Positions 9,864 to 58,981 of a stretch of 64,000 nt of DNA are shown here, in pieces. The notes under the pieces were generated by a model, which saw only the letters and a program-made list of their open reading frames with translations, did not search any database and was not told the DNA's origin. The position numbers and the translations under genes were made by a program. The DNA is from an uncultured Planctomycetia bacterium. Lineage in GTDB: Bacteria > Omnitrophota > Gorgyraeia > CAYWPX01. Location of the stretch: contig CAYWPX010000010.1 of assembly GCA_964460615.1 (NCBI GenBank), positions 1,252 to 65,251 of the forward strand, given 5' to 3'. The first letter of the stretch is position 1; each line of letters begins with the position of its first letter.

Positions 9864-10066
9864 GGATTCCCGACAAGTAACCTCGGGAATGACAAATAGC
9901 ATATGGCGTTTCTGGATTTCCTTAGGAATTTTATGATTTAAAATTCCAAGGACCAGGGCCCGCCTAAACCACGCGGGAATGACAAATGCTTAATTTACTT
10001 TTTTTCTTCCAACCTAAACCCACTGGATTCCCGACAAGTACACTCGGGAATGACAGATAACATATG
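9864..10066. repeat. Three adjacent GC-rich palindromic elements (GGATTCCCG[A/C]C-loop-G[A/C]GGGAATGACAAAT followed by an AT-rich tail). The middle one embeds the GGAATTTTATGATTTAAAATTCC hairpin typical of the MITE-like family.
   Basis: Read directly; inverted repeats and shared 40-nt tail ATGACAAATGCTTAATTTA(C/T)TTTTTTTCTTCCAACCTAAACC. Confidence 0.6.
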
Positions 10067-14042: not shown

Positions 14043-14129
14043 ACTCCGCATCATAAAATATCACAAAAATCCCTTACTTGTTGCCTATACCGGCAACAAG
14101 ATAAGATATTTTTGTGATATTCTGCGGAG
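14043..14129. mobile_element. MITE-like element, copy C. Terminal inverted repeats CTCCGCATCATAAAATATCACAAAAAT … ATTTTTGTGATATTCTGCGGAG.
   Basis: TIRs read directly. Same family as 19929-20084 and 25795-25917, with compensatory changes keeping the TIR complementarity. Confidence 0.55.
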
Positions 14130-19873: not shown

Positions 19874-19928
19874 GGCGCTCCTTAAGTTATATATCTTGGT
19901 TAAATCGCTGGTTTCTTTAGCTACGTTA

Positions 19929-20084
19929 CCCTACTTCGTAACATATCGTAAAAATTTCTACCTCGAGAAATCATAAAATGATTTCCGAGACTAAGTCCTT
20001 GGAATTTTATTATTTAAAATTCCGAAGGGCCCCGGAAATCTAAAAGATTTCCAGGTGGCGATATTTTTACGATACTCAGTAGGG
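19929..20084. mobile_element. MITE-like element, copy A (~156 bp). TIRs CCTACTTCGTAACATATCGTAAAAAT … ATTTTTACGATACTCAGTAGGG; internal hairpin GGAATTTTATTATTTAAAATTCC.
   Basis: Read directly; lies in the promoter/5' region of csp gene 19664..19873. Confidence 0.6.
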
Positions 20085-20132
20085 TTGATTAACTCGCAAA
20101 TTATAATTTTATTTATAAAAAAGCGAGTTAAT

Positions 20133-20572: not shown

Positions 20573-20600
20573 ATTATAGCATATTCAGGGTTTATGTCAA
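20573..20600 (-). promoter_or_regulatory. Consensus sigma70 promoter TTGACA-16nt-TATAAT reading toward the csp gene
   Basis: Minus strand: TTGACAtaaaccctgaatatgcTATAAT. A perfect hexamer pair is unlikely by chance in 64 kb. Confidence 0.6.
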
Positions 20601-20660: not shown

Positions 20661-21170
20661 TTAACCTTTCAAAAACGCTAATAACGACTTAATGATTACG
20701 ATAGGTTCCGGAGGACAGCCCGGGATATGTAGGGCTACAGGAAGGATATCTTTTACGGCTCCTTCGACATAATAAGAATCCTTAAAAAAACTTTCATTTA
20801 AAGCACAATCACCTACTGTAATGATAAATTTCGGCTCAGGCATAGCTTCGTAGGTGCTCTTTAAAGCAAGTAGCATATTCTTGGAGACTGCTCCTGTCAC
20901 CATAATGGCATCGGCATGCCTAGGGGAAGCCACAAAACTGACCCCGAACCTCTGTAAGTCGTATATGGCATTATTTGTAGCTATTATTTCAGCATCGCAC
21001 GCTCCGCACGATCCGACATTCACCTGCCTAATATGTAGCGAACTGCCGAATCTTTTTTTGATGAGGCACATTAGCTCATTACCGCTACACTCCAGCTCAT
21101 GCGACAACTTTTTATCGATGGATCTGGTGACAACGCCTTTAAGAATTCTATTTTTCAGTATACTAAGCAT
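20661..21170 (-). CDS. NuoB-like [4Fe-4S] small subunit of a group-4-hydrogenase-like / complex-I-like module
   Basis: Cys ligand set GSCGACD…GDCA…PGCPP; NuoB/HycG family size. Confidence 0.85.
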   Translation of the reverse strand: MLSILKNRILKGVVTRSIDKKLSHELECSGNELMCLIKKRFGSSLHIRQVNVGSCGACDAEIIATNNAIYDLQRFGVSFVASPRHADAIMVTGAVSKNMLLALKSTYEAMPEPKFIITVGDCALNESFFKDSYYVEGAVKDILPVALHIPGCPPEPIVIIKSLLAFLKG

Positions 21171-21172
21171 AA

Positions 21173-22750
21173 TTATAAGTCATTCCCCGGATATGATAGG
21201 TCGAAACTTTTATTACACAACGGAAAATCAGGGATAATATTCCCTAAAACCGCATACGTCAGAGCCTGCCAGCTCGAAAATGACGGATCTACGATTTTGC
21301 ATCGCTCAATAAGCCCTTTGGAATCTATCTTTAACCAAAATAATACAGGGCCTCGCCAGCCTTCCGCATAACCAAGGGCACAACCTTCTTTTATCTGGAA
21401 ATCTGTTTTTGCTTTCTTATCATGCGAAATTTTTTTTGCAAACTCCTCTATCAATCTCCCGGACTCTTCAAATTCCAAACATCTTACCCTCAGCCTTGCC
21501 AAAACATCTCCTGAGCCATAAGTTGAGATTTTAAATTTTGCTTCCTTATATATAGGAGAGAATTGCTTTCTTAGATCGATAGAAATACCCGATGCCCTGC
21601 CGGCTAAACCGACTACACCCAGGTCTTCGGCAGTTTTTTTTCTTAAAATTCCCGTCGTATCGACTCTGTCCATAAAAGAAACACTTGAATCCAGGACCTT
21701 TACCAATTCCCAGAAATCATGTTTTATTGATTCTAGCGACCTTAGAAGTAATTTTATTTTGGCACTGTCAAAATTTGTATTGATCCCGCCTATGGTATTG
21801 GAGTTTTTCAGGAATCTGCTGTTTGTAAGTGCTTTGTTCAATTGCAGGATGTTCTCTTTTATTATTGCGGCATATTCGGACGGGAAACTAAATCCTACAT
21901 CCAGCGCAATCCCGCCAATATCGGTAATATGATTATACATTCTTTCGAGTTCAAGATATATCCCGCGGGCATATACTGCTTCCTGAGGTACGGAAACCCC
22001 GAATATCTTTTCCGCTGCCATGCTGAATGCTAAGCTATAAGAAATTGCCGAATCGCCTGCAATGCTTTCAGATAGTTTTATGCCATCTGAAACCGATTTG
22101 TTTTCAAAAAGTTTTTCGACTCCTCTATGCGTGAATCCAAGCCTTGTCTCCAGGCTTATTATCGGCTCCCCCGCAACGCTAAACCTGAAATGCCCCGGGC
22201 CGATGATACCGGCATGGACCGGGCCTACAGGAATTTCAAATATCCCCTCTCCGTCGACCCTATTAAATTTATAATCTGTTAGATCGGACTTCTTTGGTTC
22301 TTTAAAATCCTTTCTGAGAGGGTAATTGCCCTCGGGCCATACCTCATCATGCAGTTTTAACCGCCTCAGGTCAGGGTTACCTTCGGGCTTAACTCCGAAC
22401 ATCTCATAAATTTCTCTTTCAAAAAGGCTCGCTGAATGGATATCTTTTGACAAAGAATTAAAATGAGGATTATCCTTATCAACATCAATAGTAACAGTCA
22501 CCCATTGACCCTGCTTAAGATTGACGAACACCGCGTTTATCACAAATTTTCCGGTATTCTTCCTTTCGTCAAGCGCAAAAAGCGCCATCACCGGCGATAA
22601 AAGGATCTTATGCAAAGCCAGGCACACGCCAAAAAAAGTTTCAGGCTTTACCTTGATAGTGATCTCATCCTGATAGCTTTCTAATACCTCTAAGGGAGCA
22701 AGATCAGGAAATCTCTTTTTTATATCTTGAATAATCTCTGGGTCACCCAT
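21173..22750 (-). CDS. Fused NuoC/NuoD-like large subunit lacking the NiFe-binding cysteines (Ehr-type, hydrogenase-related)
   Basis: NuoC-like N-terminus (LKLHDEVWPEGNYPLRKDF). NuoD/large-subunit core GPVHAGIIGPGHFRF…RLGFTHRGVEKL has no CxxC. The C-terminal motif reads DPSFSSW instead of DPCxSCxxH. Confidence 0.8.
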   Translation of the reverse strand: MGDPEIIQDIKKRFPDLAPLEVLESYQDEITIKVKPETFFGVCLALHKILLSPVMALFALDERKNTGKFVINAVFVNLKQGQWVTVTIDVDKDNPHFNSLSKDIHSASLFEREIYEMFGVKPEGNPDLRRLKLHDEVWPEGNYPLRKDFKEPKKSDLTDYKFNRVDGEGIFEIPVGPVHAGIIGPGHFRFSVAGEPIISLETRLGFTHRGVEKLFENKSVSDGIKLSESIAGDSAISYSLAFSMAAEKIFGVSVPQEAVYARGIYLELERMYNHITDIGGIALDVGFSFPSEYAAIIKENILQLNKALTNSRFLKNSNTIGGINTNFDSAKIKLLLRSLESIKHDFWELVKVLDSSVSFMDRVDTTGILRKKTAEDLGVVGLAGRASGISIDLRKQFSPIYKEAKFKISTYGSGDVLARLRVRCLEFEESGRLIEEFAKKISHDKKAKTDFQIKEGCALGYAEGWRGPVLFWLKIDSKGLIERCKIVDPSFSSWQALTYAVLGNIIPDFPLCNKSFDLSYPGNDL

Positions 22751-24177
22751 ATCACATCCTTGTTAAAGAAAATAAATAAAACCCCAACAGCGCATAATTG
22801 TATAAAAAGAAATAAAAATGCTAATTTATGACTTATTGGTTCTCTTTGGCTTGTCATTCCTTTGGGAAGATTGCCAAAAAGTATTTTAGCAAAGTGATAG
22901 ATAAACGCTCCGAAAACTATCGATAGAAATATCAGTATAAATGCTGCCAGTACATACGATCCTTTCGTAAAGGCGGCTATTATTATAAGTATCTCGCTTA
23001 TAAATAGAGAAAACGGCGGAAAACCGGTAAGCGCAAATACCCCCAATAGGACCATTATGCCTGTGAATGGAAGCACCTTCATCACCCCGCGGATAGCATT
23101 CATATTATGTTTTTTGTAATAGCCTACGATATTACCTGCCCCGAAAAACATTAGTGATTTAGCCACGGCATGGTTATATATATGAAAAATCGCCCCGGCC
23201 AGAGCTAAAGGCGAACCTAATCCAAAGCCGATTGAAATCATCCCAACATGCTCAATACTGCTATATGCGAGCAGCCTCTTAAGGTCCTTCTGCACTAAGA
23301 TAAATACGCATGGTATCGCCATTGAGATTATCCCGAAAAGAATCAGTAAATTCCCAAAAAATGGAAAACCAACGTTTTCAATAACTATGATCCCGAACCT
23401 TAAAATCGCATATATCGCTATTTTTAACAATACTCCTGACAAAAGAGCGCTTATAGGAGCGACTGCCTGGCTATGCGCATCGGGCAGCCACGTATGCATG
23501 GGCGCAAGGCCTGCTTTGGTGCCATACCCGACGAGAATAAATATGAAGGCGATCTTGATCATATTCTTATTCATATTGGACGAAACTAAAACCATGTCGG
23601 ACCAATTGAGGCTTTTAACATTACCTATAAGAGAAAAAGCATAGGAAAAAAGGATCGTACCCAGAAGCGCAAATATGATCCCCACAGAACAGATGATAAT
23701 ATATTTCCAAGCGGCCTCTACGGACTCTTTGGAGTTATAAAAACCCACCAAAAACGCCGAGACAAGCGTAGTCATTTCTATGGTCACCCATAACATCCCT
23801 AAGTTATTGGCTGCCGGCGCAAATAACATAGCAAGGCACAATAGATTGAAAAGAACATAATATATCTTTACTTTCTTAGTACTTAATTTCCCCTCTTTCA
23901 GGTCTTTTTCAATGTACCCGATGGAGTAAAGTGCTGTAGCAAAAGCCACTATGGATATAACGAATATAAAGAATGCGGATAATGTGTCTATATATAAAAG
24001 ATCATTATGCACTAAAATATTTCCTGAAATTATGGAATCTTTTAATAATATAAAGCTCGCTACAAGCACCACCAGATACCCCAGGCTATTTATTACCCCA
24101 AAGATTCTATCTTTTTTGATAATTAAGGATAGGCCCGCAAGTATTAGCGGTATAGCTAAGACCAAAAATATTCCCAT
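22720..24177 (-). CDS. NuoM/NuoN / HyfF-like proton-pumping antiporter subunit
   Basis: ~14 TM helices with the conserved WLPDAHSQAVAPISALL…LLAYSSIEHVG motifs of complex I antiporter-like subunits. Confidence 0.75.
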   Translation of the reverse strand: MGIFLVLAIPLILAGLSLIIKKDRIFGVINSLGYLVVLVASFILLKDSIISGNILVHNDLLYIDTLSAFFIFVISIVAFATALYSIGYIEKDLKEGKLSTKKVKIYYVLFNLLCLAMLFAPAANNLGMLWVTIEMTTLVSAFLVGFYNSKESVEAAWKYIIICSVGIIFALLGTILFSYAFSLIGNVKSLNWSDMVLVSSNMNKNMIKIAFIFILVGYGTKAGLAPMHTWLPDAHSQAVAPISALLSGVLLKIAIYAILRFGIIVIENVGFPFFGNLLILFGIISMAIPCVFILVQKDLKRLLAYSSIEHVGMISIGFGLGSPLALAGAIFHIYNHAVAKSLMFFGAGNIVGYYKKHNMNAIRGVMKVLPFTGIMVLLGVFALTGFPPFSLFISEILIIIAAFTKGSYVLAAFILIFLSIVFGAFIYHFAKILFGNLPKGMTSQREPISHKLAFLFLFIQLCAVGVLFIFFNKDVIWVTQRLFKI

Positions 24178-24185
24178 AAACTTTT

Positions 24186-24821
24186 TTATCCTTTTAAACG
24201 CGAAAGTTTATTTACGTCAATATGCGTAAATAGCTTATTTATCCGGTAAACAAAAAATCCCATTATCATGACACTTAAAAATACGTCAAAAAATATCGCT
24301 ATCTCGATAAAAAACGGCATTCCTCCCGATATCGTCAAGGCCAATAAGAATAGCCCGTTCTCCATAACCAGTAACCCTATTATCTGAGAAAGGGCCGTCA
24401 TCCTCGAGACCATCAGGAATATGCCCGATAAGAGCACAAAAAAGGCTACCGCAAACATCCCGGTGATAGACTGATTTGCCGTTACTATCACTTGCGTTGT
24501 AAAAAACCATGATAAATATGTGAAACCCAGCGCCCATATTAAGGATAACTGCGGGTTGATAAATAATCCCAGGTCTTCGTTAACTTTTATCTTCCTGATT
24601 ATTCTGTATAATAAAAATGGAACTAAAATGACCTTTATGATAAATACTAAAGCAGCAATTATAAAAAGATCCCCTTCTCTCTCCTTTAAAGCGACAATAA
24701 ACGCCGCCAAAAATAGGCAAAATGACTGGCATCGAAAACCCCTTATCAGGGCCCCCATCCTTTTAGCGATAACCATCAGGTAAGTGGACATTAAAAGTAA
24801 AAATAATATAATTTCCTGCAT
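24186..24821 (-). CDS. HyfE/NuoK-like small membrane subunit
   Basis: 211-aa polytopic membrane protein at the HyfE position of hyf/ehr operons; assignment by context and size. Confidence 0.5.
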   Translation of the reverse strand: MQEIILFLLLMSTYLMVIAKRMGALIRGFRCQSFCLFLAAFIVALKEREGDLFIIAALVFIIKVILVPFLLYRIIRKIKVNEDLGLFINPQLSLIWALGFTYLSWFFTTQVIVTANQSITGMFAVAFFVLLSGIFLMVSRMTALSQIIGLLVMENGLFLLALTISGGMPFFIEIAIFFDVFLSVMIMGFFVYRINKLFTHIDVNKLSRLKG

Positions 24822-24822
24822 G

Positions 24823-25746
24823 TTAGGCTCCTAAAATGGCAAATATTACTGCAACAATCCCCAAAACAAAGGCAAACCCGAGAAAATCCGCTACTCTAAA
24901 TAATCTCATCTTCGCTAACGACACCTCAACCAATGCCACTATGATAGCGATAATGGCAAATCTGGCTACATACCATAAAATCCAGTATATAAAATCGGCG
25001 GAATTTAAAATTTCAGGGACGTTGATAGGAAAAATTATCTGGGCTATGATAAAGAATAGGATCAGCTGCTTTATGTATGAAGATATTTCCAGTAAAGCTA
25101 AACTCCTGCCGGAATATTCCAGGACCATCGCCTCGTGTACCATAGTAAGCTCCAGATGCGTCTCCTGATTGTCTACAGGAACTCTAGAAGTCTCAGCTAT
25201 AGTTATAAGAAATAAGGCGATTGCGCCGACTATGGATGCTACTGATATCCCGTGCATACCGCTAAAGGCAGCTAAATTCGTCGAACCAAACTGCAATGCC
25301 ACAGAAAATACCACTAAACACATCACCGGCTCAGCTAAGCTTGATATGAACATCTCCCTTGATGAGCCCATTCCCCCGAAAGAACTTCCCGTATCGAGGG
25401 CCGCAAGGCATAAGAAAAATCTTCCAAGAGAAAAAATAAATATAAGCGCAATAAAATCCCCCATATGGTTCAAGGGGTTGGTAAAAATAAAAATCGGGAT
25501 AAGAACTGCCGCAGTTAAAACGGAGGAAAAAACCATATAAGGCGCGATTCTAAACACCCAGGAAGCGTCTTTAGAAATAACCTCATCTTTAGAAAATAAT
25601 TTGACGAGGTTAAAATACGGCTGCAAAACACCCTGGCCTATGCGCATTCTGAGGGTATTTTTGACCTTTGTTATAAATCCGCTTAGTATAGGTGCTGCCA
25701 GAATAAAAAAAGCTATCTCGATTAAAACTAAAAATATATTTTTCAT
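24823..25746 (-). CDS. NuoH / HycD-like membrane subunit
   Basis: N-terminus …APILSGFITKVKNTLRMRIGQGVLQPYFNLVKLFSKDE… matches the NuoH/HycD signature. Confidence 0.8.
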   Translation of the reverse strand: MKNIFLVLIEIAFFILAAPILSGFITKVKNTLRMRIGQGVLQPYFNLVKLFSKDEVISKDASWVFRIAPYMVFSSVLTAAVLIPIFIFTNPLNHMGDFIALIFIFSLGRFFLCLAALDTGSSFGGMGSSREMFISSLAEPVMCLVVFSVALQFGSTNLAAFSGMHGISVASIVGAIALFLITIAETSRVPVDNQETHLELTMVHEAMVLEYSGRSLALLEISSYIKQLILFFIIAQIIFPINVPEILNSADFIYWILWYVARFAIIAIIVALVEVSLAKMRLFRVADFLGFAFVLGIVAVIFAILGA

Positions 25747-25794
25747 ATTGAATCTCTTTTTGGGTTTTAACCCGGAGCTTCTTTCATGTATGAT

Positions 25795-25917
25795 CCCGCA
25801 TCGTAAGATATCGCAAAAATTTCTTCCCCGATAATTCCGAAGAATTTTCGGGACTAAATCTTTGGAATTTTAGGATTTAAAATTCCTAGGGGCGATATTT
25901 TTGCGATACTCTGCGGG
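25795..25917. mobile_element. MITE-like element, copy B. TIRs CCCGCATCGTAAGATATCGCAAAAAT … ATTTTTGCGATACTCTGCGGG. Inserted in the intergenic gap inside the Ehr operon.
   Basis: Read directly; same family as 19929-20084. Confidence 0.6.
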
Positions 25918-25973
25918 ATAATCTATCTTGCATTAATTCCGGGCTTAAAAGCCAGGAATTAATGCAATATAGA

Positions 25974-27821
25974 TTAGAACCTGCCCATAAATACAATTAA
26001 TAATATCAGTGTCATAAAAATATAAGCGAGATACAGATGAATAGACCCCGGCTGAATACGCCTTGCGTACTTGGCCAATTTAAAAATCAAACTAAGCATC
26101 GGCTCATATATATACTCTTTAAAAACTTTGGTAGTATGCGTTTCATATCTAAAAGATTTGACATAATAGAAAGACTCTCTGATCTTTTGTGTTTTGCGGT
26201 AGGGCAAAAGAAAAAAACTGAAAGCGATCCTGAATGGCTTTGAAAAAGCCGTAGCAGTATATTCATTCCTCGGGTCAAGCTTATAGTAACCGCAATCCCA
26301 TGTTTTATATATAACGGCTTTTTTCCTTTTAAACATATACAGCATTACTCCTAATAGCCCCGTCGCTACCAGCACAATCGCAAGTATCGGTAAAGATAGA
26401 TAAATATCTGCCCCCGAAACCTGCGGATTAGCCTGCAGACTAATAATAAAATTATTCGGAGTAAAACTCATATTACTTATATCAACCCCGGCAGAAAAAC
26501 CCGCTATCTTACTAAGCATCTTTATAATGAATCCCGCCGCTAAACCAAGAAGAATTACAAGTACTGATAATATTGCCATAGATATCCTCATTGATATCGA
26601 TACCTCTTTGGCGTCTTTAGCGTTTCTACTTCTTGGCTGGGCAAGAAATATTATCCCGAATGCCTTGATAAAAGTGGCTATGGCTAAACCACCTGTGAGA
26701 CAAAGTAAAGATGCTACTATGCACAAAAATAGTTTCGTGCCGCCCAAAGTGTTAAGAGCCCCCAGGAAAAATGCCTGCAAAGTTAACCACTCGCTGACAA
26801 AGCCATTTAAAGGCGGTAAAGCTGATATCGCCATTACTCCTACCAGAAAATAAATAGCGGTCTGGGGCATCCGCTTTATAAGCCCGCCAAGTTTTTCCAT
26901 ATCGCGAGTTCCGGTAGCCTGGTAGATACTGCCGCTGCCTAAAAATAGAAGGCCTTTAAATATTGCATGATTCACGAGGTGATATAGCCCGGCTATTAAA
27001 GAAAAGATTGCAAGATATGGCATATTTATGCTCATAAAAAATATTGCCAGCCCCACTCCAAGCAGGATAATCCCGATATTTTCAACACTTGAATAAGCCA
27101 AAAGCCTTTTTATATCTTTTTCCATGAGGGCATATATGACACCCACTAAACATGTGAATGTAGCAAGTATGATTATAAGAATTCCCCACCACGAAGCGCC
27201 CACTCCGAGTATGAAGATAACAAATCTTATAAGCCCGTATATTGCGGTTTTGATCATTACGCCTGACATGATACTTGAGATATGGCTTGGAGCCTGCGGG
27301 TGGGCATATGGCAACCAGATATGTAAAGGCACAATGCCTGCCTTGGTGCCAAAACCTACTACAAGCAGAAGAAAAACTGCATTCCTGATATTCTGCGGCA
27401 TAAGCATACAACCACTTTTGATGCTTAATAGATCGAACGAACCGGTATATTTATAAAGAATCATAAAAGCAGCTATTAAAAATGCTGTTCCGATATGAGT
27501 CATTATTATGTATATTGTACCCGCCTGAATAGATTTTTCATGGGTGGAGTCAAACACGACGAGAAAGTATGAAACGAGTGACATGATCTCCCATATTACA
27601 AGAAAGAAGATAATATTTTTAGCCGTCACAACTAAACACATCGAGATAACAAAAATAATCATTAGAACCCATGCTAATAGGATCTTTGAACTAGGGTAAT
27701 CTTTTTTGAGGTAGCCGATAGAGTATATGGCGGATGGGATCGATACAATAGCAATCGCTATCAGGAAAAAAACTGACAGTGGATCAACTAAAAACAGTTT
27801 TGAAATACTTTGAAAATCCAT
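25974..27821 (-). CDS. NuoL / HyfB-like antiporter-type membrane subunit
   Basis: 615 aa, polytopic, WLPYAHPQAPSHISSIMSG…LLAYSSVENIG motifs. Confidence 0.8.
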   Translation of the reverse strand: MDFQSISKLFLVDPLSVFFLIAIAIVSIPSAIYSIGYLKKDYPSSKILLAWVLMIIFVISMCLVVTAKNIIFFLVIWEIMSLVSYFLVVFDSTHEKSIQAGTIYIIMTHIGTAFLIAAFMILYKYTGSFDLLSIKSGCMLMPQNIRNAVFLLLVVGFGTKAGIVPLHIWLPYAHPQAPSHISSIMSGVMIKTAIYGLIRFVIFILGVGASWWGILIIILATFTCLVGVIYALMEKDIKRLLAYSSVENIGIILLGVGLAIFFMSINMPYLAIFSLIAGLYHLVNHAIFKGLLFLGSGSIYQATGTRDMEKLGGLIKRMPQTAIYFLVGVMAISALPPLNGFVSEWLTLQAFFLGALNTLGGTKLFLCIVASLLCLTGGLAIATFIKAFGIIFLAQPRSRNAKDAKEVSISMRISMAILSVLVILLGLAAGFIIKMLSKIAGFSAGVDISNMSFTPNNFIISLQANPQVSGADIYLSLPILAIVLVATGLLGVMLYMFKRKKAVIYKTWDCGYYKLDPRNEYTATAFSKPFRIAFSFFLLPYRKTQKIRESFYYVKSFRYETHTTKVFKEYIYEPMLSLIFKLAKYARRIQPGSIHLYLAYIFMTLILLIVFMGRF

Positions 27822-27980
27822 AATTTACCTATGAAGTCCCATGGTTTTGCAGTCGCGGTTAATTGAAAACCCGCCGCCGCTTAGCGCCGGCGAGGTCCGC
27901 CTTCAACTTATAGAGTGACATCTCGCCGTTATGTAGAATTCCCGCATTCATCCTTCGTACTTTAGACACAAAGTTTTCAG

Positions 27981-28023
27981 GGAAGGCGGATATAAAAGTA
28001 AAAGACCTTGACGGTTTACTCAA
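27981..28023 (-). terminator. Candidate terminator downstream of the ACR3 gene
   Basis: 10-bp stem AAGACCTTGA…TCAAGGTCTT, then T-rich TTTTACTTTTAT on the minus strand. Confidence 0.4.
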
Positions 28024-28128
28024 TCAAGGTCTTGGGTTTCATTCCTGCGGCCTTTGCCGTATAGCCAGTATAACTAATAGTTTGTTCCGGTATTTACTTT
28101 ATCAGTATAATCCTTTAAGGTTACTATT

Positions 28129-29187
28129 TCAAGGATTTTTTTTAAATCTAAGTGCCAAGTTCACAAGTATTATCAAAACAGGGACTTCTACTAACGGCCC
28201 AATTACTGTAGCGAAAGCCTGGTTTGAGCTTATACCAAATATTGCTACAGCTACTGCAATCGCCAATTCAAAATCATTACTAGCAGCAGTAAATGAGGTT
28301 GCAACTCTTTGCCCATAATTTATCTTCATACGACCAGAAATAAAAAAAGTCGCAAACCACATTATAAAAAAATATATAACCAAAGGCACAGCAACCCTGA
28401 ACACGTCTAAAGGTTGTTTTACAATATATTGGCCTTTTAAAGAAAACATTACAATTATTGTAAATAGAAGCGCTACTAAGGTTATAGGGCTTATCTTAGG
28501 AATAAATTTATCTTCATACCACTTTTTGCCTTTTAACTTTATCAGACTGAAGCGCGTTATGGCTCCCAATAGAAATGGGATACCAAGATAAAATAAAACC
28601 GTTGATGCGGCATCCACCATGGATATATTTATATTTAAACCTTTGTCAAGGCCCAGCCACTTTAGCCCTAGAGTAATAAATAGATAGATATATGCTGCAT
28701 AAAATAAGATCTGGAATATTGCATTAAAAGCTACTAGACCTATTGCAAATTCCCTGTCGCCCTCGGCAAGTTCATTCCACACAATAACCATAGCAATGCA
28801 GCGCGCCAAACCAACAAGAATAACTCCAACCATGTACTCCGGATAATTATGGAGAAAAATAATTGCGAGAATAAACATTACAACAGGCCCGACAATCCAA
28901 TTCTGGATCAAAGAAAGCGCTAAAAGCTTTGGCTTATTAAATACCTTTCCCATCTCTTCATATTTTACTTTAGCAAGAGGAGGGTACATCATAAGTATCA
29001 AACCTATCGCTATTGGAATGGATGTAGCCCCTACCTGCATATCCGATATGCATTTAGTAGCGCTTGGAGCAAAATAACCTAAAGCAACCCCTATCCCCAT
29101 CGCCAAAAATATTAAAGGTGTTAGCAGCTTATCTAATAACGATAGTTCTTTTCTAGATTCATATAATTCATGTTTTGTATAAGGCAT
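28129..29187 (-). CDS. acr3: ACR3-family arsenite efflux transporter
   Basis: 10-TM BART-superfamily layout and typical ACR3 N-terminus. Confidence 0.8.
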
Positions 29188-29222
29188 GCTTACTCCTTCT
29201 CAGTAAATTATCATCCAATATT

Positions 29223-30011
29223 TTATGTAACCGGTTTTTTTGCCGAAATTTTGAGGCTTACTATAACATCCTCTAGGCTTTTAAAATTATCCAAAATATT
29301 GTCTACAGGGTAACTTGACTGGCTGATTACACCCACATCTTCGAATCCTGCCTTCTTAATAAGTTGTATATATGTGTCTTTACTTATAGCCCCTGCAATA
29401 CACCCCACATATGCCTCAACCGATTCTTTAACTGAATTTGGCAAATCCTTAAGAAGCGCCAAGTCTGAGATCATTAATCTGCCAGATGGTTTTAACACCC
29501 TAAATGCCTCTCGAAACACCTGTTCTTTGTCAGGCGAAAGATTAATTACACAATTTGAAATAACTACATCAATTGATTTATCTTCAACTGGAAGTTTCTC
29601 AATTTCGCCTAAGCGAAAATCGACATTGCTATATTTGCCTTTTTTAGCATTCAATTTTGCCTTATCAATCATTTCGGATGTCATATCAATACCAATAACA
29701 CGGCCATCCGGACCCACTTCTTTTGCTGCCAAAAACACATCAAAACCAGCCCCGCTTCCCAGATCAAGAACAACGTCACCCTTTTTTAATGAAGCAAGCG
29801 CTACCGGGTTACCGCATCCAAAACCTAAATTCGCTTCTTCGGGGGCAGAATTCATATCTGACTCGCTATAACCAATAGCTTTACTTATTTGTTTTGCCTT
29901 TGTAGTGCCGGAACAACAAGTTGGCCCTGAGCAACAAGAGGTATTTCTTGTAACTGCCTTGGCATAGCCATCCCTAACCATTTTTTTAATTTCTTCTGAT
30001 TTTCTTTTCAT
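29223..30011 (-). CDS. arsM: Arsenite S-adenosylmethionine methyltransferase (ArsM)
   Basis: SAM motif VLDLGSGAGFDV, N-terminal Cys cluster (CCSGPTCCSG), ArsM-like length. Confidence 0.8.
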   Translation of the reverse strand: MKRKSEEIKKMVRDGYAKAVTRNTSCCSGPTCCSGTTKAKQISKAIGYSESDMNSAPEEANLGFGCGNPVALASLKKGDVVLDLGSGAGFDVFLAAKEVGPDGRVIGIDMTSEMIDKAKLNAKKGKYSNVDFRLGEIEKLPVEDKSIDVVISNCVINLSPDKEQVFREAFRVLKPSGRLMISDLALLKDLPNSVKESVEAYVGCIAGAISKDTYIQLIKKAGFEDVGVISQSSYPVDNILDNFKSLEDVIVSLKISAKKPVT

Positions 30012-30053
30012 ATTTCAACCGATCCTCCATATCTAAATCTACTTAAAAAGCAT

Positions 30054-31013
30054 TTATACCAAAATTTGTTGAATTAAATTAAATAGATAACCCGTTATTA
30101 TGATAGCCAGGATCGTTATGCCAAAAAAAATTGCTATCAAGTTTAGCTTCATCGCGCGCCTTAGCATTATGGCCTCAGGCAGGCTGAGCGCTGACACCGC
30201 CATCATAAAAGCTAGAGCTGTCCCAAGCGGAAATCCTTTTTGGAATAAAACAACAGCTATAGGCACTATTGCCGCGCAGCTACCATACATCGGCACTCCT
30301 ATAAGAGTAGCTATGGGAACGGAAAATATGCCTGTCTTGCCGACAGTGGATTGAACCATACCCTCGGGTATATAATTATGGATTAAAGCCCCTACCCCAA
30401 CACCTACCAATACCCATATCCAAAGTTTTTTTATAATGCAATTTGCTTCACTAAGGCCGAATGAGACCCTGTTTTTAAAACCCTTGTATTTTATCTCGCA
30501 ACTTGATTCCAAATTACCGGCAACGATATCTTTCTCCAGGTATCTTGCTAAATTCATCCTGTCCAATATAATTCCCGATATGGTGCCTATCGACATCCCG
30601 CTTATTATATAAAGAAGTGTTATCTTCCATCCAAAAAAACCTATCATCAGCACTACAAGGTACTCATTAATTAAAGGCGATGTTATCAAAAAAGAAAAAG
30701 TTACTCCCAACGGGATGCCGGCTTTAAGAAAACTCAAAAATATCGGTATTGAGGAACACGAGCAAAAAGGCGTCACTGCTCCGAATGCTGAAGCTAATAT
30801 ATTACCTAAGCCTTTTTTGTGCGCCAGCCAGCCTTTTATCTTATGCTGAGGCAGAAATGTTCTAAAAAAACCAATAGCGCCTATCATAAAAAATAGAAGC
30901 AGCATTATCTTTATCAAATCGTAGATAAAAAAATCCAATACTGCCCCCAATTTTGACTCAGGGTCGAATCCAAATACTGAATATATAAGCCAATCAACTA
31001 CTACTTGCAACAT
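30054..31013 (-). CDS. arsP: ArsP-like permease (organoarsenical efflux permease family, DUF318)
   Basis: 8-TM permease with a [10 protein letters not shown] motif; located in the ars cluster. Confidence 0.65.
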
Positions 31014-55465: not shown

Positions 55466-57004
55466 TTAAATTTTATCAGAAACTTTTGTTACGCTGAATT
55501 TACCTCCGCCCAATATGGATAAAGCTATCAACGCGCATAAAATTATAAAATTATACTCCCATCCGCCGGTAGAGATAAAAAATCCGTTCTTCCAGTGAAC
55601 CAGCTTAACTGCCATAATTGTAAAAATTATCAGCGGGATAGTCGCAATCCTTGTAAAGACCCCCAAAATAAGGCAGCTCCCACCCACAAGACATGAATAG
55701 GAAGCAATGTATGACCAAAGAATTTGAGGCAACCCCAGCATATTAGGCAATGTACTTGAAAATTTTTCTACCCCCGGGCCTTCAAATAACCCGAACGCCA
55801 TCTGAAGCCCATGCGCCACAAACATCACCCCCAGGCCAATCCTTAAAACTAAACTTGCCAAACTTGATGTAATCATCTTATCCCCCTTTTTTACAATAAA
55901 TTCCTTTATAATCCCAAACCCTTTTTGCCAACTATAAGACCGGTAAAAGCACATCATAAAATGTAAAAATGTCGCAAAAAATCCTGTTACATTCACCCCG
56001 AGGACAATCCCGCAGGACCTGTCATTGGCCATGGGTATTATGTACCCCAGATCCATTGTTCTATACTTACGCAGCCTTTTTTTCTTTATATTTCTTATTA
56101 TATTTTTCGCTACACTGTCTGCCTCGGATAATGCGAACTGGACCGCCATTCTCAGATATATATCCTTCTGCCTTACATAAGCTGAGTCTCCCACAACAAA
56201 AACCCGCTCATCAATCCTGAGGTACTCATCTACCTCTATCCTCCCTTGTCCATTTTTCTTTACATCTAAATTCTGTATAAAATCCGCCGTTTTAACACCG
56301 GCAACCCATATGACAATAGCATTTTCAATAACAGTCCCGTTGGAAATATAGACCCTCTCCCCTTCGATTTTATTTATACTGCTATTAAGAAGTACTTCTA
56401 TCTCCAATCTTTTGAAATTAGAATAAACATAATTTTTTATCCACTCCGGTAATTGCCCTAAGATGGATGAAGATTTTTCGACGATCATAATTCTGGCAAT
56501 TTTGGCTTCTTTTTTTAAAAATATCCTTAAATTAGAAGCGACTTCCGCGCCGGTATAACCTCCTCCGGCTATTATGTATGCACCAACTTTTCTAAATTTA
56601 ATTTTTTCAAGCAGCACCTTAGTATCGTTTAAATCATCCAGCTTTGAGGCGAACTTTTTTATGTTTTCATTTCCATAAAAATTAGTTTTGCTTCCGCTTG
56701 CTATCACAAGATAATCATAGCTTAAAATACGGTTTTTAGTACTGACCTCTCTATTTTTGATATCAACGGAAATAACCTCTTCTTCAATAAATTCAAAGCC
56801 ATACCTATTTACAATCTCTCCTATAGAATATGCAAGATATCCCGGGGTTATTCCTCTGCCAAGGCAATCAGGAAGTTCGGGCAAAAAATCTGAAGTGCTT
56901 TTTTTATCAAGAAGAATAACCTCGATATGAGGCCTAAACCGCGCCAATTTTTTTGCAGCCATAAGCCCCCCGAACCCGCCTCCGACTATAATGACTCTAT
57001 CCAA
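55466..57004 (-). CDS. NAD(P)/FAD-dependent oxidoreductase (NDH-2 / SQR-like) fused to a C-terminal DoxX membrane domain
   Basis: IIVGGGFGGLMAAKKL dinucleotide fold, second GGGYTG fold, then a ~130-aa polytopic DoxX-like tail (LRIGLGVMFVAHGL…). Confidence 0.7.
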   Translation of the reverse strand: MDRVIIVGGGFGGLMAAKKLARFRPHIEVILLDKKSTSDFLPELPDCLGRGITPGYLAYSIGEIVNRYGFEFIEEEVISVDIKNREVSTKNRILSYDYLVIASGSKTNFYGNENIKKFASKLDDLNDTKVLLEKIKFRKVGAYIIAGGGYTGAEVASNLRIFLKKEAKIARIMIVEKSSSILGQLPEWIKNYVYSNFKRLEIEVLLNSSINKIEGERVYISNGTVIENAIVIWVAGVKTADFIQNLDVKKNGQGRIEVDEYLRIDERVFVVGDSAYVRQKDIYLRMAVQFALSEADSVAKNIIRNIKKKRLRKYRTMDLGYIIPMANDRSCGIVLGVNVTGFFATFLHFMMCFYRSYSWQKGFGIIKEFIVKKGDKMITSSLASLVLRIGLGVMFVAHGLQMAFGLFEGPGVEKFSSTLPNMLGLPQILWSYIASYSCLVGGSCLILGVFTRIATIPLIIFTIMAVKLVHWKNGFFISTGGWEYNFIILCALIALSILGGGKFSVTKVSDKI

Positions 57005-57899
57005 AGATAACTCCTATGATTATTAATAAGCTCACAACTGAATGTATAGTTATTGTCAGCCTGGACGACTCAATAAGCTTTACCTTATCGTGCCAATGGC
57101 TCTTTAATATCCCGGCGGCTTTCATTGCTCCTGATACAGCAAAGAGAGAGACAATAGCCGGTAAACCCATATAGCCGCATATTATATTTAAAACAATGGA
57201 TAAGAACGCACATACCATAAGAACCAGGTAAAGTATGTAGGCGCGTTTTTGTCCGATAATAGATACCCATGTAAATTTACCGGATCTAATATCATCCTTA
57301 AAATCAGGTATCTCATTGGCATAAAGAATGGCGGTGGCTATAAACCCGAACGGTAAAGACAAGATAAAACTTTTTAAATCAGGGACCTGCCCTCCCTGAA
57401 GAAAATACCCTCCCATTACAGGCGCAGGACCAAAAAGTATAAAAATTATTATCTCGCCATACCTTCGATAGGAAAACTGCAACGGCTTGGCCGAATATGA
57501 CCAGGCCAAAAAAAGCACTCCAAAAAAAACGGCTATTATGAATATGTTTTTTTGTATTATTGCTATAACGAGCGCCGACAAACAAGAAATAGCCGCCATT
57601 AGCAAAGCCAGGTAAAAATAGAACCTTCCCGAAAATACCGACTCCTGTATCAGCTTGGATCCGCCGAAGTACCTGTAAAATTTTGTATCCTGCCAATCGA
57701 CCCCGGTCTTTGAATCCGCATAGTCATTGATAAGATTGGCGCTCAAATGCCCTGCCATTACCGTAATAAGCCCGAGCACAAAATTGGTGGCGTCAAAAAA
57801 ACCCTTTATGGCCAGCGACCCCGAGATAAAAGGCATTAGGCTGGCCAAAGTAAACGGCAGCCTTAAAGCCCGCATTATGTTATTAATAAAATTTTTCAT
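56997..57899 (-). CDS. UbiA-family prenyltransferase (MenA-like)
   Basis: NDYADSKTGVD Asp-rich motif, ~9 TM; 8-nt overlap with the downstream gene. Confidence 0.8.
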   Translation of the reverse strand: MKNFINNIMRALRLPFTLASLMPFISGSLAIKGFFDATNFVLGLITVMAGHLSANLINDYADSKTGVDWQDTKFYRYFGGSKLIQESVFSGRFYFYLALLMAAISCLSALVIAIIQKNIFIIAVFFGVLFLAWSYSAKPLQFSYRRYGEIIIFILFGPAPVMGGYFLQGGQVPDLKSFILSLPFGFIATAILYANEIPDFKDDIRSGKFTWVSIIGQKRAYILYLVLMVCAFLSIVLNIICGYMGLPAIVSLFAVSGAMKAAGILKSHWHDKVKLIESSRLTITIHSVVSLLIIIGVIFG

Positions 57900-57934
57900 T
57901 TGTTTTGCCTTATCTATTATGTTAGGATAATTGT

Positions 57935-58981
57935 ATGCTGAACAAATTAAAAGATGACATCGGATCTGAAATCAACGCATACCTGAAATATATCGATAAA
58001 AAATATTCTTTTAATAACATATCCCCACAAATATTCCGCTATATAAAAGGCCTATTACTCCAGAAGGGCAAAAGACTGCGCCCGTCTCTTTTTATTATTG
58101 GATATTCGGGGTTTACTAAGAAAAAACCCTCGGGATTATACCGAAGCTCAATATCCATGGAACTTCTGCATAACTTCATACTCGTCCATGACGACATAAT
58201 AGACAAGTCCGGCACAAGACGCGGAAAACTGTCTATGCATAATCTGATAAATAAGCATCTAAGTAAATATAAAAATCTCAGATTCACCGGGGAAGACCTC
58301 TCTATTATTTTGGGAGACATAATATACGCCCTCGGCATATCGGCATTTCTATCTATCAATGAGAATAGAACCCGTAAAGAACTTGCCTTAAACAAACTTA
58401 TTGATGCTGCTATTTATACGGGAACCGGGGAATTTTTAGAACTTCTTTTTGCGACAAAAGACATTAAAGCCATAGATAATAACGATATTTACAAAATTTA
58501 TGATCTTAAAACTGGCATCTATTCTTTTTCAACTCCACTGGTAATCGGCGCCATGCTTGCCGGAGCAAAAAAAACCGATATAAATAGATTATTCAATTGC
58601 GGGATATATCTGGGGCGTGCATTCCAGATAAAAGATGATATATCGGACTTGATTATCAATGAACGGGGCTCCGGTTATGAAGATTCTTCGGATCTGCGTG
58701 AAGCTAAAAAAACCATACTTGTCTGGTATGCATATAAAAATACCGATAAATCCGGTAAAACAATAATTAGAAAACTTTTTAAAAAAGACAAAGTTAGCGG
58801 AACCGATATTTTAAAACTGCGTAAAATAATCATTGATTCCGGTTCAATAGACTATGCAAAAAACAGGATCGATTATTTTGTCAATAAAGGCATTACTCTC
58901 CTAAATTCTTCATCAATGCGTCAAAAATATAAAGATCTTGTCTTGAGACTTTCCGATCTGTATATCTTGAATAAACAATAA
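57935..58981 (+). CDS. Polyprenyl diphosphate synthase (trans-isoprenyl)
   Basis: FARM LVHDDIIDKS and SARM KDDISD. Confidence 0.85.
   Translation: MLNKLKDDIGSEINAYLKYIDKKYSFNNISPQIFRYIKGLLLQKGKRLRPSLFIIGYSGFTKKKPSGLYRSSISMELLHNFILVHDDIIDKSGTRRGKLSMHNLINKHLSKYKNLRFTGEDLSIILGDIIYALGISAFLSINENRTRKELALNKLIDAAIYTGTGEFLELLFATKDIKAIDNNDIYKIYDLKTGIYSFSTPLVIGAMLAGAKKTDINRLFNCGIYLGRAFQIKDDISDLIINERGSGYEDSSDLREAKKTILVWYAYKNTDKSGKTIIRKLFKKDKVSGTDILKLRKIIIDSGSIDYAKNRIDYFVNKGITLLNSSSMRQKYKDLVLRLSDLYILNKQ

Follow-up and report, generated by a model that had tools for sequence, protein, structure and literature searches.

Here we describe an intact six-gene operon of a complex of the Ehr/Hyq type (Ehr, energy-converting hydrogenase-related), a relative of the group 4 [NiFe] hydrogenases and of complex I, encoded on the minus strand at positions 20661–27821 of a 64-kb contig piece of the Omnitrophota lineage (hereafter, the window is this whole 64-kb stretch). 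The complex is not a [NiFe] hydrogenase. Its large subunit, EhrL, has the fold of the E. coli hydrogenase subunit HycE in the predicted structure and, as judged from alignment, is devoid of hydrogenase-type Ni-Fe binding. The small subunit keeps the ligands of a single iron–sulfur cluster, and the four membrane subunits retain the charged ion-translocation residues of complex I, the membrane-bound hydrogenase (MBH) and formate hydrogenlyase (FHL). From this combination we infer that the complex probably works as a minimal single-cluster redox-coupled ion pump or, run in reverse, as a gradient-driven reductase.

The six open reading frames (ORFs; Table 1) lie at the coordinates given by a first-pass annotation, which had been made from the letters of the window and an ORF list. 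Pfam and NCBIfam agree with the gene order and families that it proposed (NuoL-, NuoH-, HyfE- and NuoN/M-like subunits, a fused NuoC/D-like and a NuoB-like subunit). Its reading of the locus as an Ehr-type complex is likewise supported: the large subunit is nearest to HycE by sequence and by fold, lacks the Ni-Fe cysteines, and belongs to a gene set as published for Ehr. All NCBIfam scores fell under the curated cut-offs, and none of the six proteins is therefore orthologous to a named enzyme subunit. EhrA matched the profile ‘hydrogenase 4 subunit B’ (2e-189) from position 71 of the profile, and its alignment to HycC begins at residue 72. A 5′ truncation of ehrA, suspected from the start of the HyfB profile match, was rejected because orthologues in the same clade are likewise 610–634 aa long. 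The closest solved relative of EhrB is HycD (2e-38), and EhrD matches MbhH (6.9e-43). EhrC scored 3.9e-28 against ‘hydrogenase 4 membrane subunit’, under the curated cut-off, with a weak Pfam Oxidored_q2 match over residues 122–211; a sequence search for solved relatives of EhrC returned none. A HyfE-like gene occupies the same place in all related cassettes, and the 31-nt overlap between ehrD and ehrL is also found in relatives.

By sequence, the closest solved relative of EhrL is E. coli HycE (E = 5.5e-56, residues 82–521). A first AlphaFold2 (AF2) model, built from 20 close homologues, was discarded, with pLDDT below 50 at the active-site stretches 173–209 and 490–525. The model built from a 50-sequence diverse alignment (pLDDT 92.4, pTM 0.93) has HycE as its best fold match (7z0s_E; TM 0.93/0.91, root mean squared deviation 2.5 Å) and the fused NuoCD of E. 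coli as its second (TM 0.88); low confidence is confined to residues 178–185, which span the HAGIIEPGHFRF-type loop. In the alignment to HycE, ESIAGDSAISYS of EhrL stands opposite DRVCGICGFAHS, which places A231 and S234 at the L1 cysteine positions, and FDLSYPGNDL stands opposite LDPCYSCTDR, which places S519 and G522 at the L2 cysteine positions. EhrL thus contains neither the group 4 L1 motif (R/K)xCGxCxxxH nor the L2 motif DPCxxCxx(H/R). The first-pass annotation had reported that an N-terminal CxxC is missing, as is indeed the case (RVCGICGFAH of HycE pairs with SIAGDSAISY), and had concluded that the protein cannot bind Ni-Fe. That conclusion stands, all four cysteines being replaced, although the stretch on which it was partly based, DPSFSSW, was wrongly taken for the L2 motif: these residues (488–494, nt 21269–21289) pair with AATYANW of HycE and APSFVNL of Nqo4. 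The Cys-to-Ser substitutions that it expected in such alignments are present at S234 and S519, whereas positions 231 and 522 are Ala and Gly. Intact L1 or L2 cysteine motifs, which it allowed it might have misplaced, were not found in the HycE alignment.

The remodelled site is conserved in its own right. Twenty close relatives all have S234, S519 and G522, with A or S at position 231, and D233, between the two former L1 cysteine positions, is invariant in 50 diverse family members. In the EhrL loop HAGIIGPGHFRF, G184 aligns with the E of SDEPGHFRL in HycE, a glutamate that we take to be the proton relay of [NiFe] hydrogenases. The glutamate of the HAGIIEPGHFRF loop is kept in at least 90% of diverse family members and is missing from EhrL.

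EhrS has the four proximal [4Fe-4S] cysteines of group 4 small subunits: in alignment, C55, C58, C122 and C152 stand opposite the cluster-binding residues of MbhJ and HycG, with hydrogenase-type CxxC spacing. At 169 aa, the protein carries no ferredoxin-like extension. All four cysteines are kept in every locus of the Omnitrophota clade. In the membrane arm, alignments to MbhH and HycC show that EhrA and EhrD retain the glutamate of transmembrane helix 5 (TM5), TM7 Lys/His, TM8 Lys, TM11 Lys and TM12 Glu, and the coupling loop of EhrB keeps the acidic residues of HycD. Across the family, E78, K160, K289 and E344 of EhrA are invariant (64 of 64 members). E134 and K340 of EhrD are found in all 76 members and E134, K221 and K340 taken together in 75–76 of the 76; position 395 is E in 69 and K in 7. 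E185, D192, E199 and E205 of EhrB are present in 68 of 68 members, or in 67–68 of 68 when E210 is included.

The usual electron-transfer subunits are missing from the window. NuoE, NuoF, NuoG and NuoI are found neither in the operon nor in the window. The ferredoxin motif CxxCxxCxxxC(P) is absent from all six frames of the whole window, paired CxxC motifs turned up in none of its small ORFs, and Pfam scans of the larger neighbouring ORFs in the window detected no Hyp, ferredoxin or formate dehydrogenase (FDH) genes. The absence of a NuoI/HycF subunit and of maturation genes, noted in the first-pass annotation, is borne out by these searches, as is that of a hycF- or nuoI-like gene just outside the operon, which it had named as a finding that would speak against it.

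To place the locus, one genome per species was scanned in a species-representative collection. Relatives of the cassette were confirmed in at least 594 candidate stretches from many bacterial and archaeal phyla, and 80 loci were kept (cited below by L-number). Among the matches listed are bacterial loci from Omnitrophota, Saganbacteria, Nitrospirota, Acidobacteriota, Rokubacteria, candidate-phyla-radiation groups, Firmicutes, Actinobacteria and Proteobacteria, and archaeal loci from ammonia-oxidising archaea and Methanosarcina. The gene order A-B-C-D-L-S or S-A-B-C-D-L is nearly universal in the 80 loci. The window’s gene order recurs on three long Omnitrophota contigs, where the six genes stand between unrelated flanks; since flanking genes vary among loci, the cassette is self-contained. 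In two Nitrospirota loci (L038 and L079), two complete Ehr cassettes stand in tandem, with ‘SGT’ in one and ‘SGD’ in the other at L1. The exact EhrL protein is already in NCBI records, and more than 120 EhrL clusters at 64–68% identity are almost all 525 aa long, the named ones being Candidatus Omnitrophota. A search of 1.84 billion representatives yielded 788 EhrL-related proteins at E = 1e-30 or better. Cluster look-up of the distant relatives returned generic names only.

In the alignment of these proteins, most representatives carry E[RS]xSGD[ST]xxxH at L1 and NKSFNLSY[SA]GxDL at L2; the SGD...LSY[SA]G signature is typical at 30–60% identity and occurs in most of the 80 genome loci. A minority of representatives (36–41% identity) retain ERxCGxC and FELCYSCxDR. 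Among the genome loci, 7 of 80 have such cysteine-bearing large subunits, accompanied by small subunits of 236–290 aa, six of which contain ferredoxin-type cluster motifs (two motifs in L051 and L059, one in L066, L070, L078 and L081, none in L075). One of them, L066, shows an odd pairing of a large subunit with all four Ni-Fe cysteines and a small subunit without cluster cysteines (GSENSCDW/GDEA/GDPP). Conversely, seven loci (L021, L024, L033, L040, L043, L048 and L055) combine an SGD-type large subunit with a long small subunit that has two ferredoxin-type motifs; this fusion would stand in for the missing NuoI/HycF subunit. A neighbour-joining tree, which is approximate and in which the Rhizobium branch was not counted, places the window in a clade of Omnitrophota loci together with one Saganbacteria locus (L012), and the cysteine-bearing hydrogenases form one clade nested among the cysteine-free ones. 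All members of the window’s clade have G or, in one case, P at position 184, and short small subunits with the cysteines kept. The Saganbacteria locus contains ehrD, ehrL and ehrS only, ehrA, ehrB and ehrC being missing there, and two SNF2-family helicase genes lie ahead of them. An FDH partner beside this locus was considered and rejected, as the SNF2 helicases flank it instead.

In the mechanism that we favour, a soluble low-potential carrier such as ferredoxin would dock directly on EhrS, at the site taken by NuoI/HycF in relatives, and exchange electrons with the single EhrS cluster. From the cluster, electrons would pass to an acceptor (a quinone or some other small molecule) held in the remodelled pocket, where EhrL, EhrS and the NuoH-like subunit meet. 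This reaction would be coupled, through the NuoH-like and HyfE-like subunits, to movement of H+ or Na+ through the two antiporter-like subunits. Quinone would be the simplest acceptor. The window contains a MenA-like prenyltransferase gene (under the curated cut-off) and a polyprenyl synthase gene.

Several observations weigh against this mechanism. First, Tyr87 and His38 of Thermus thermophilus Nqo4, which we take to be the quinone head-group ligands of complex I, correspond to G232 and I183 of EhrL in the Nqo4 alignment, and this lack of conservation disfavours a quinone acceptor. Second, all or most of the small-subunit cysteines are lost in L019, L022, L029, L060 and L062 (candidate-phyla-radiation and similar groups) and in L086 (Methanosarcina); one example reads GSTNACEQ/GDDA/GDPP. 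In these loci the peripheral arm would have no known cofactor, and at least part of the family therefore works without electron transfer. Third, neither in the window nor consistently in relatives is the operon accompanied by a gene for a donor or acceptor. Finally, the mechanism is deduced from sequence throughout, and we found no purified family member in the searchable literature.

The second and third of these observations give weight to the main rival, in which the complex acts independently of redox chemistry as a cation/proton antiporter or a converter of ion gradients, the large and small subunits forming a structural or regulatory cap inherited from a hydrogenase ancestor, with the Fe-S cluster as a structural element or redox sensor. 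We regard this as unlikely for the window’s complex, although three facts speak for it: no feature of the family is more strictly conserved than the ion-translocation residues, the whole cassette is kept in the six loci whose small subunits have lost their cysteines, and no electron donor or acceptor is encoded nearby. It sits less well with the conservation of all four cluster cysteines in the window’s clade, or with that of D233 in every member examined and of S234, S519 and G522 in the clade; such conservation of the old site argues for a working pocket beside a working cluster. Nor does any of the six proteins match antiporter families outside the antiporter-like domain common to Mrp and complex I.

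A further alternative, which we consider less likely still, is that the complex serves a larger enzyme as its membrane anchor and coupling module, the catalytic partner, such as an FDH or an electron-bifurcating [FeFe] hydrogenase, being encoded elsewhere. An FDH–Ehr complex has been hypothesised for Saganbacteria and Margulisbacteria (PMC6349859), the Saganbacteria locus L012 falls within the window’s clade, and Geobacter Ehr is more abundant on formate (PMC7894505). In one Omnitrophota locus (L005:12205-21578), the cassette is directly followed by a gene for a Rex-type regulator and by NuoE-, NuoF- and HydA-like genes of the bifurcating [FeFe] hydrogenase (HydABC) type. Against this, no FDH or [FeFe] hydrogenase gene lies within 20 kb on one side and 36 kb on the other side of the operon, and neighbours differ in every locus examined.

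Returning to the single-cluster pump, a bolder version of it would have the Ehr family convert the former Ni-Fe pocket into a new catalytic site without cysteines, centred on the invariant Asp233 together with Ser234, Ser519 and Tyr520. We hold this to be improbable. If true, no redox-driven ion pump known from the complex I superfamily would be smaller than this complex, its chemistry would be one not yet described, and at the extreme it could carry out the Ni-Fe-independent H2 chemistry that has been claimed for Hyq.

That the complex is a true cysteine-free hydrogenase, as claimed on genetic grounds for Azorhizobium Hyq (a reversible H2:quinone oxidoreductase), is very improbable. In its favour, Hyq is built from the same set of subunits, with both CxxC motifs absent from HyqG and with HyqI cysteines at positions 55, 58, 112 and 152 (PMC3357923); deletion of hyq slows diazotrophic growth, and H2 phenotypes have been reported (PMC2650096, PMC3357923). 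The SGD signature is also common to a Rhizobium operon of hyq layout. EhrL, however, lacks the four Ni-Fe ligands and has G184 in place of the relay glutamate, Cys-497, which is conserved in HyqG, corresponds to L518 in EhrL, and no hyp-like genes occur in the window. The authors of the Hyq work themselves call the Ni-Fe site ‘uncertain, if not unlikely’ (PMC3357923), and such proteins have elsewhere been said to be ones that ‘likely cannot interact with H2’ (PMC7304191).

The operon is interrupted between ehrA and ehrB by a non-coding repeat (Table 1). Orthologous loci have only 2–5 nt at this place, and the gap is therefore an insertion. It consists of a 28-bp hairpin (25919–25976), which overlaps the stop codon of ehrA, and an element of about 133 nt (25790–25922) bounded by terminal inverted repeats of about 33 nt (25790–25828 and 25889–25922). 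The insert folds at −88.3 kcal/mol (z = −9.6 against shuffled sequence). A second copy, about 80% identical and with the same inverted ends, sits at 19928–20085 between an unassigned ORF and a cold-shock gene, and fragments are found at 9921–9951 and 14102–14127; no transposase gene turned up among the window ORFs scanned. With its non-coding character, its same-ended second full copy and the fragments, the label ‘MITE’ (miniature inverted-repeat transposable element) given in the first-pass annotation is a fair one. The insert is intergenic and leaves the purine-rich AAAAAGAGA ahead of the start codon of ehrB. The insert, together with an L1 region that departs from the clade consensus at C229→S, S231→A and H238→Y, might be taken to indicate a decaying, functionless remnant, a reading that is scarcely credible given six intact frames of normal length, the purine-rich stretch preserved before ehrB, the presence of all functional residues checked and the variation of the differing L1 positions in other members too.

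The intergenic region ahead of ehrA contains a strong hairpin followed by a U-run near 28000–28035, which is probably the terminator of the preceding gene, and a GC-rich hairpin (27872–27892) followed by GGUUUUC. We do not claim a promoter-like site at 28104–28132 as the operon promoter, as it lies upstream of that likely terminator. An Rfam search of the leader and of the whole window returned no known RNA family. In close Omnitrophota relatives, a conserved leader of about 107 nt precedes ehrA. From 5′ to 3′ it comprises a promoter-like site, the hairpin UCCGAGUUUUAAGGUGGGUCUGGA, which is invariant, a linker rich in A, and an intrinsic terminator, the upper stem of which shows compensatory changes at eight pairs. 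A 20-nt pattern from this leader retrieved 65 metagenome loci (L088–L152); for 56 of these, the start of an EhrA homologue lies no more than about 210 nt downstream, most often at 100–130 nt. The relatives’ leader has no counterpart in Rfam; it may control Ehr as a new riboswitch-like or attenuator element, and it could offer an experimental route to the signal that controls expression of the complex. A faint resemblance to this leader in the window, seen by eye, was not supported, the covariance model giving no match at 27822–28128.

At the other end of the cassette, a gene for a 117-aa DMT_6 (PF04342) membrane protein follows ehrS in 8 of 21 Omnitrophota-type loci (for example, L001:12106-12459) and is absent from the window. 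In one locus (L118:4028-4444), the DMT_6 gene lies directly after the Ehr leader, with no Ehr genes in between. An nhaA-I (Li+/Na+) riboswitch (RF03057; 47.3 bits against a gathering threshold of 37) was identified at L001:12557-12614, between the DMT_6 gene and a mechanosensitive-channel gene.

According to Pfam, the neighbouring ORFs in the window encode efflux systems, arsenic-resistance-like proteins, a cold-shock protein and sensor kinases. The stretch that adjoins the operon on its upstream side, 28129–31013, encodes an SBF/ACR3-family transporter, an S-adenosylmethionine (SAM) methyltransferase and an ArsP-type permease (arsenic-resistance-like), and an RND efflux system comes next. Just past the end of ehrS, a perfect sigma-70 consensus promoter on the minus strand (20573–20600; TTGACA, 16 nt, TG-TATAAT) lies upstream of the cold-shock gene. 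Further away, 55466–58981 encodes a pyridine-nucleotide-disulfide oxidoreductase–DoxX fusion, the MenA-like prenyltransferase (95 bits against a cut-off of 102) and a polyprenyl diphosphate synthase, a hint that the organism makes a prenylated quinone.

Table 1. Features of the ehr operon in the window, and the leader conserved in its relatives
Feature	Position	Strand	Size	Description	Profile match or sequence
ehrA	25974-27821	-	615 aa	Antiporter-like, HyfB/HycC/NuoL family	Pfam Proton_antipo_M, 2.8e-57
ehrB	24823-25746	-	307 aa	NuoH/HycD/HyfC-like	Pfam NADHdh, 4.7e-37
ehrC	24186-24821	-	211 aa	HyfE-like small membrane subunit, NuoK-like C-terminal half	
ehrD	22720-24177	-	485 aa	Antiporter-like, HyfF/NuoN/M/MbhH family	NCBIfam ‘hydrogenase 4 subunit F’, 3.4e-138
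ehrL	21173-22750	-	525 aa	Fused NuoC + NuoD/HycE-like large subunit	Pfam Complex1_30kDa + Complex1_49kDa
ehrS	20661-21170	-	169 aa	NuoB/HycG/MbhJ-like small subunit	Pfam Oxidored_q6, 3.3e-25
L1 equivalent	22034-22069			EhrL residues 228-239	ESIAGDSAISYS
L2 equivalent	21176-21205			EhrL residues 516-525, extreme C-terminus of the protein	FDLSYPGNDL
MITE-like non-coding repeat	25747-25973	.	227 nt	Between ehrA and ehrB	
Operon leader/promoter region	27822-28128	-	307 nt	Intergenic	
Conserved leader (relatives)	L001:5060-5164, L003:5064-5173, L005:5030-5137, L007:5081-5180, L058:2271-2381				

The locus is ordinary in kind. It adds a lineage with an especially stripped-down version of Ehr and leaves knowledge of the family itself unchanged. 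With at least 594 candidate stretches recovered here, Ehr is among the most widespread energy-metabolism gene clusters without an assigned function. Genome surveys routinely mislabel it as ‘NADH-quinone oxidoreductase subunit C’, ‘Ni,Fe-hydrogenase III large subunit’ or ‘complex I’, with the result that metabolic reconstructions of uncultured phyla, Omnitrophota among them, are distorted.

Ehr was first named in Geobacter sulfurreducens (GSU0739-45), where EhrA-1 (NuoL-like), EhrC (HyfE-like), EhrL and EhrS were designated and where the proteins are produced and their levels vary with the electron donor, with the higher abundance on formate referred to above (PMC7894505). A six-gene Ehr locus is known from Desulfotomaculum ruminis (PMC3569383). 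The Ehr of comammox Nitrospira has been described as ‘close to group 4f but lack the CxxC motifs’ (PMC10284858), and further examples come from ammonia-oxidising archaea (PMC10432482), from Margulisbacteria, Saganbacteria and Melainabacteria (PMC6349859), from the candidate phyla radiation (PMC7304191) and from Elusimicrobia (10.1101/765248). Its function is given as unknown in all of these reports (PMC7894505, PMC3569383, PMC10284858, PMC10432482, PMC6349859, PMC7304191, 10.1101/765248), and the remark in the first-pass annotation that Ehr complexes are poorly characterised, with no known substrate, matches this literature (PMC10284858, PMC10432482, 10.1101/765248). For Omnitrophota we found no description of Ehr in the searchable literature; a large Omnitrophota survey counts PF00346 as ‘complex I’. 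The window shares with the Geobacter and D. ruminis systems the gene set and a group 4-related large subunit without CxxC motifs, the likeness to Geobacter being one of published descriptions. The Ehr family as a whole stands near group 4f, and the nearest cysteine-bearing relatives of the window protein are 37–41% identical to it. What sets the window’s Omnitrophota/Saganbacteria clade apart from other Ehr is the G (P in one member) that replaces the glutamate of HAGIIEPGHFRF.

The hyqBCEFGI genes of Azorhizobium caulinodans encode six subunits, among them HyqG, a fused NuoC::NuoD (PMC3357923), and genetics suggests that Hyq is a reversible H2:quinone ‘endo-hydrogenase’, the sole experimental claim for the family (PMC2650096, PMC3357923). 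Hyq has its six structural genes in the order seen in the window, and the HyqI cysteines are at almost the same positions as those of EhrS. Hyq also occurs in other alphaproteobacterial diazotrophs, and Rhizobium leguminosarum has been named as a hyq carrier (PMC3357923). We found an operon of hyq layout on a plasmid of Rhizobium ruizarguesonis (regulator, hyfB, NuoH, HyfE, HyfF, a 504-aa ‘NuoC’ and NuoB). Its large subunit is 36% identical to EhrL (E = 5e-89), with SGDS and PLCNKSFNCSYSGHDL (...SYSGHDL) at matching places, and its small subunit is 51% identical to EhrS (E = 1e-52); in contrast to G184 of EhrL, however, the Rhizobium large subunit has E. A hyqR-type regulator stands beside the Hyq operon, whereas none adjoins that of the window. 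Hyq belongs to the nif regulon of aerobic diazotrophs, whereas the window’s organism is a relative of uncultured Omnitrophota, and the hydrogenase activity of Hyq is claimed from genetics, not from purified protein.

Among group 4 hydrogenases, HycE is nearest to EhrL, MbhJ and HycG are nearest to EhrS, and HycC, HycD and MbhH are nearest to the membrane subunits. Compared with these enzymes, the window’s complex is without the Ni-Fe cysteines, the relay glutamate, the two-cluster subunit HycF/MbhN and HycB/HyfA, and has no maturation genes nearby; EhrA is without the first ~65 residues of HyfB/HycC, and EhrS, at 169 aa, is shorter than the small subunits of cysteine-bearing relatives (236–290 aa). 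With complex I it shares homologues of NuoB, NuoC, NuoD, NuoH and NuoL/M/N, a NuoK-like segment, the site of the N2-type cluster and the ion-translocation residues; unlike complex I, it has no NuoE, NuoF, NuoG, NuoI or NuoA and only two antiporter-like subunits. The likeness to Mrp antiporters is confined to the Proton_antipo_M domain of those two subunits, the other four genes matching the NuoH, HyfE, NuoC/D and NuoB families. The complex encoded in the window is thus an Omnitrophota-lineage member of the already named and very widespread Ehr/Hyq family.

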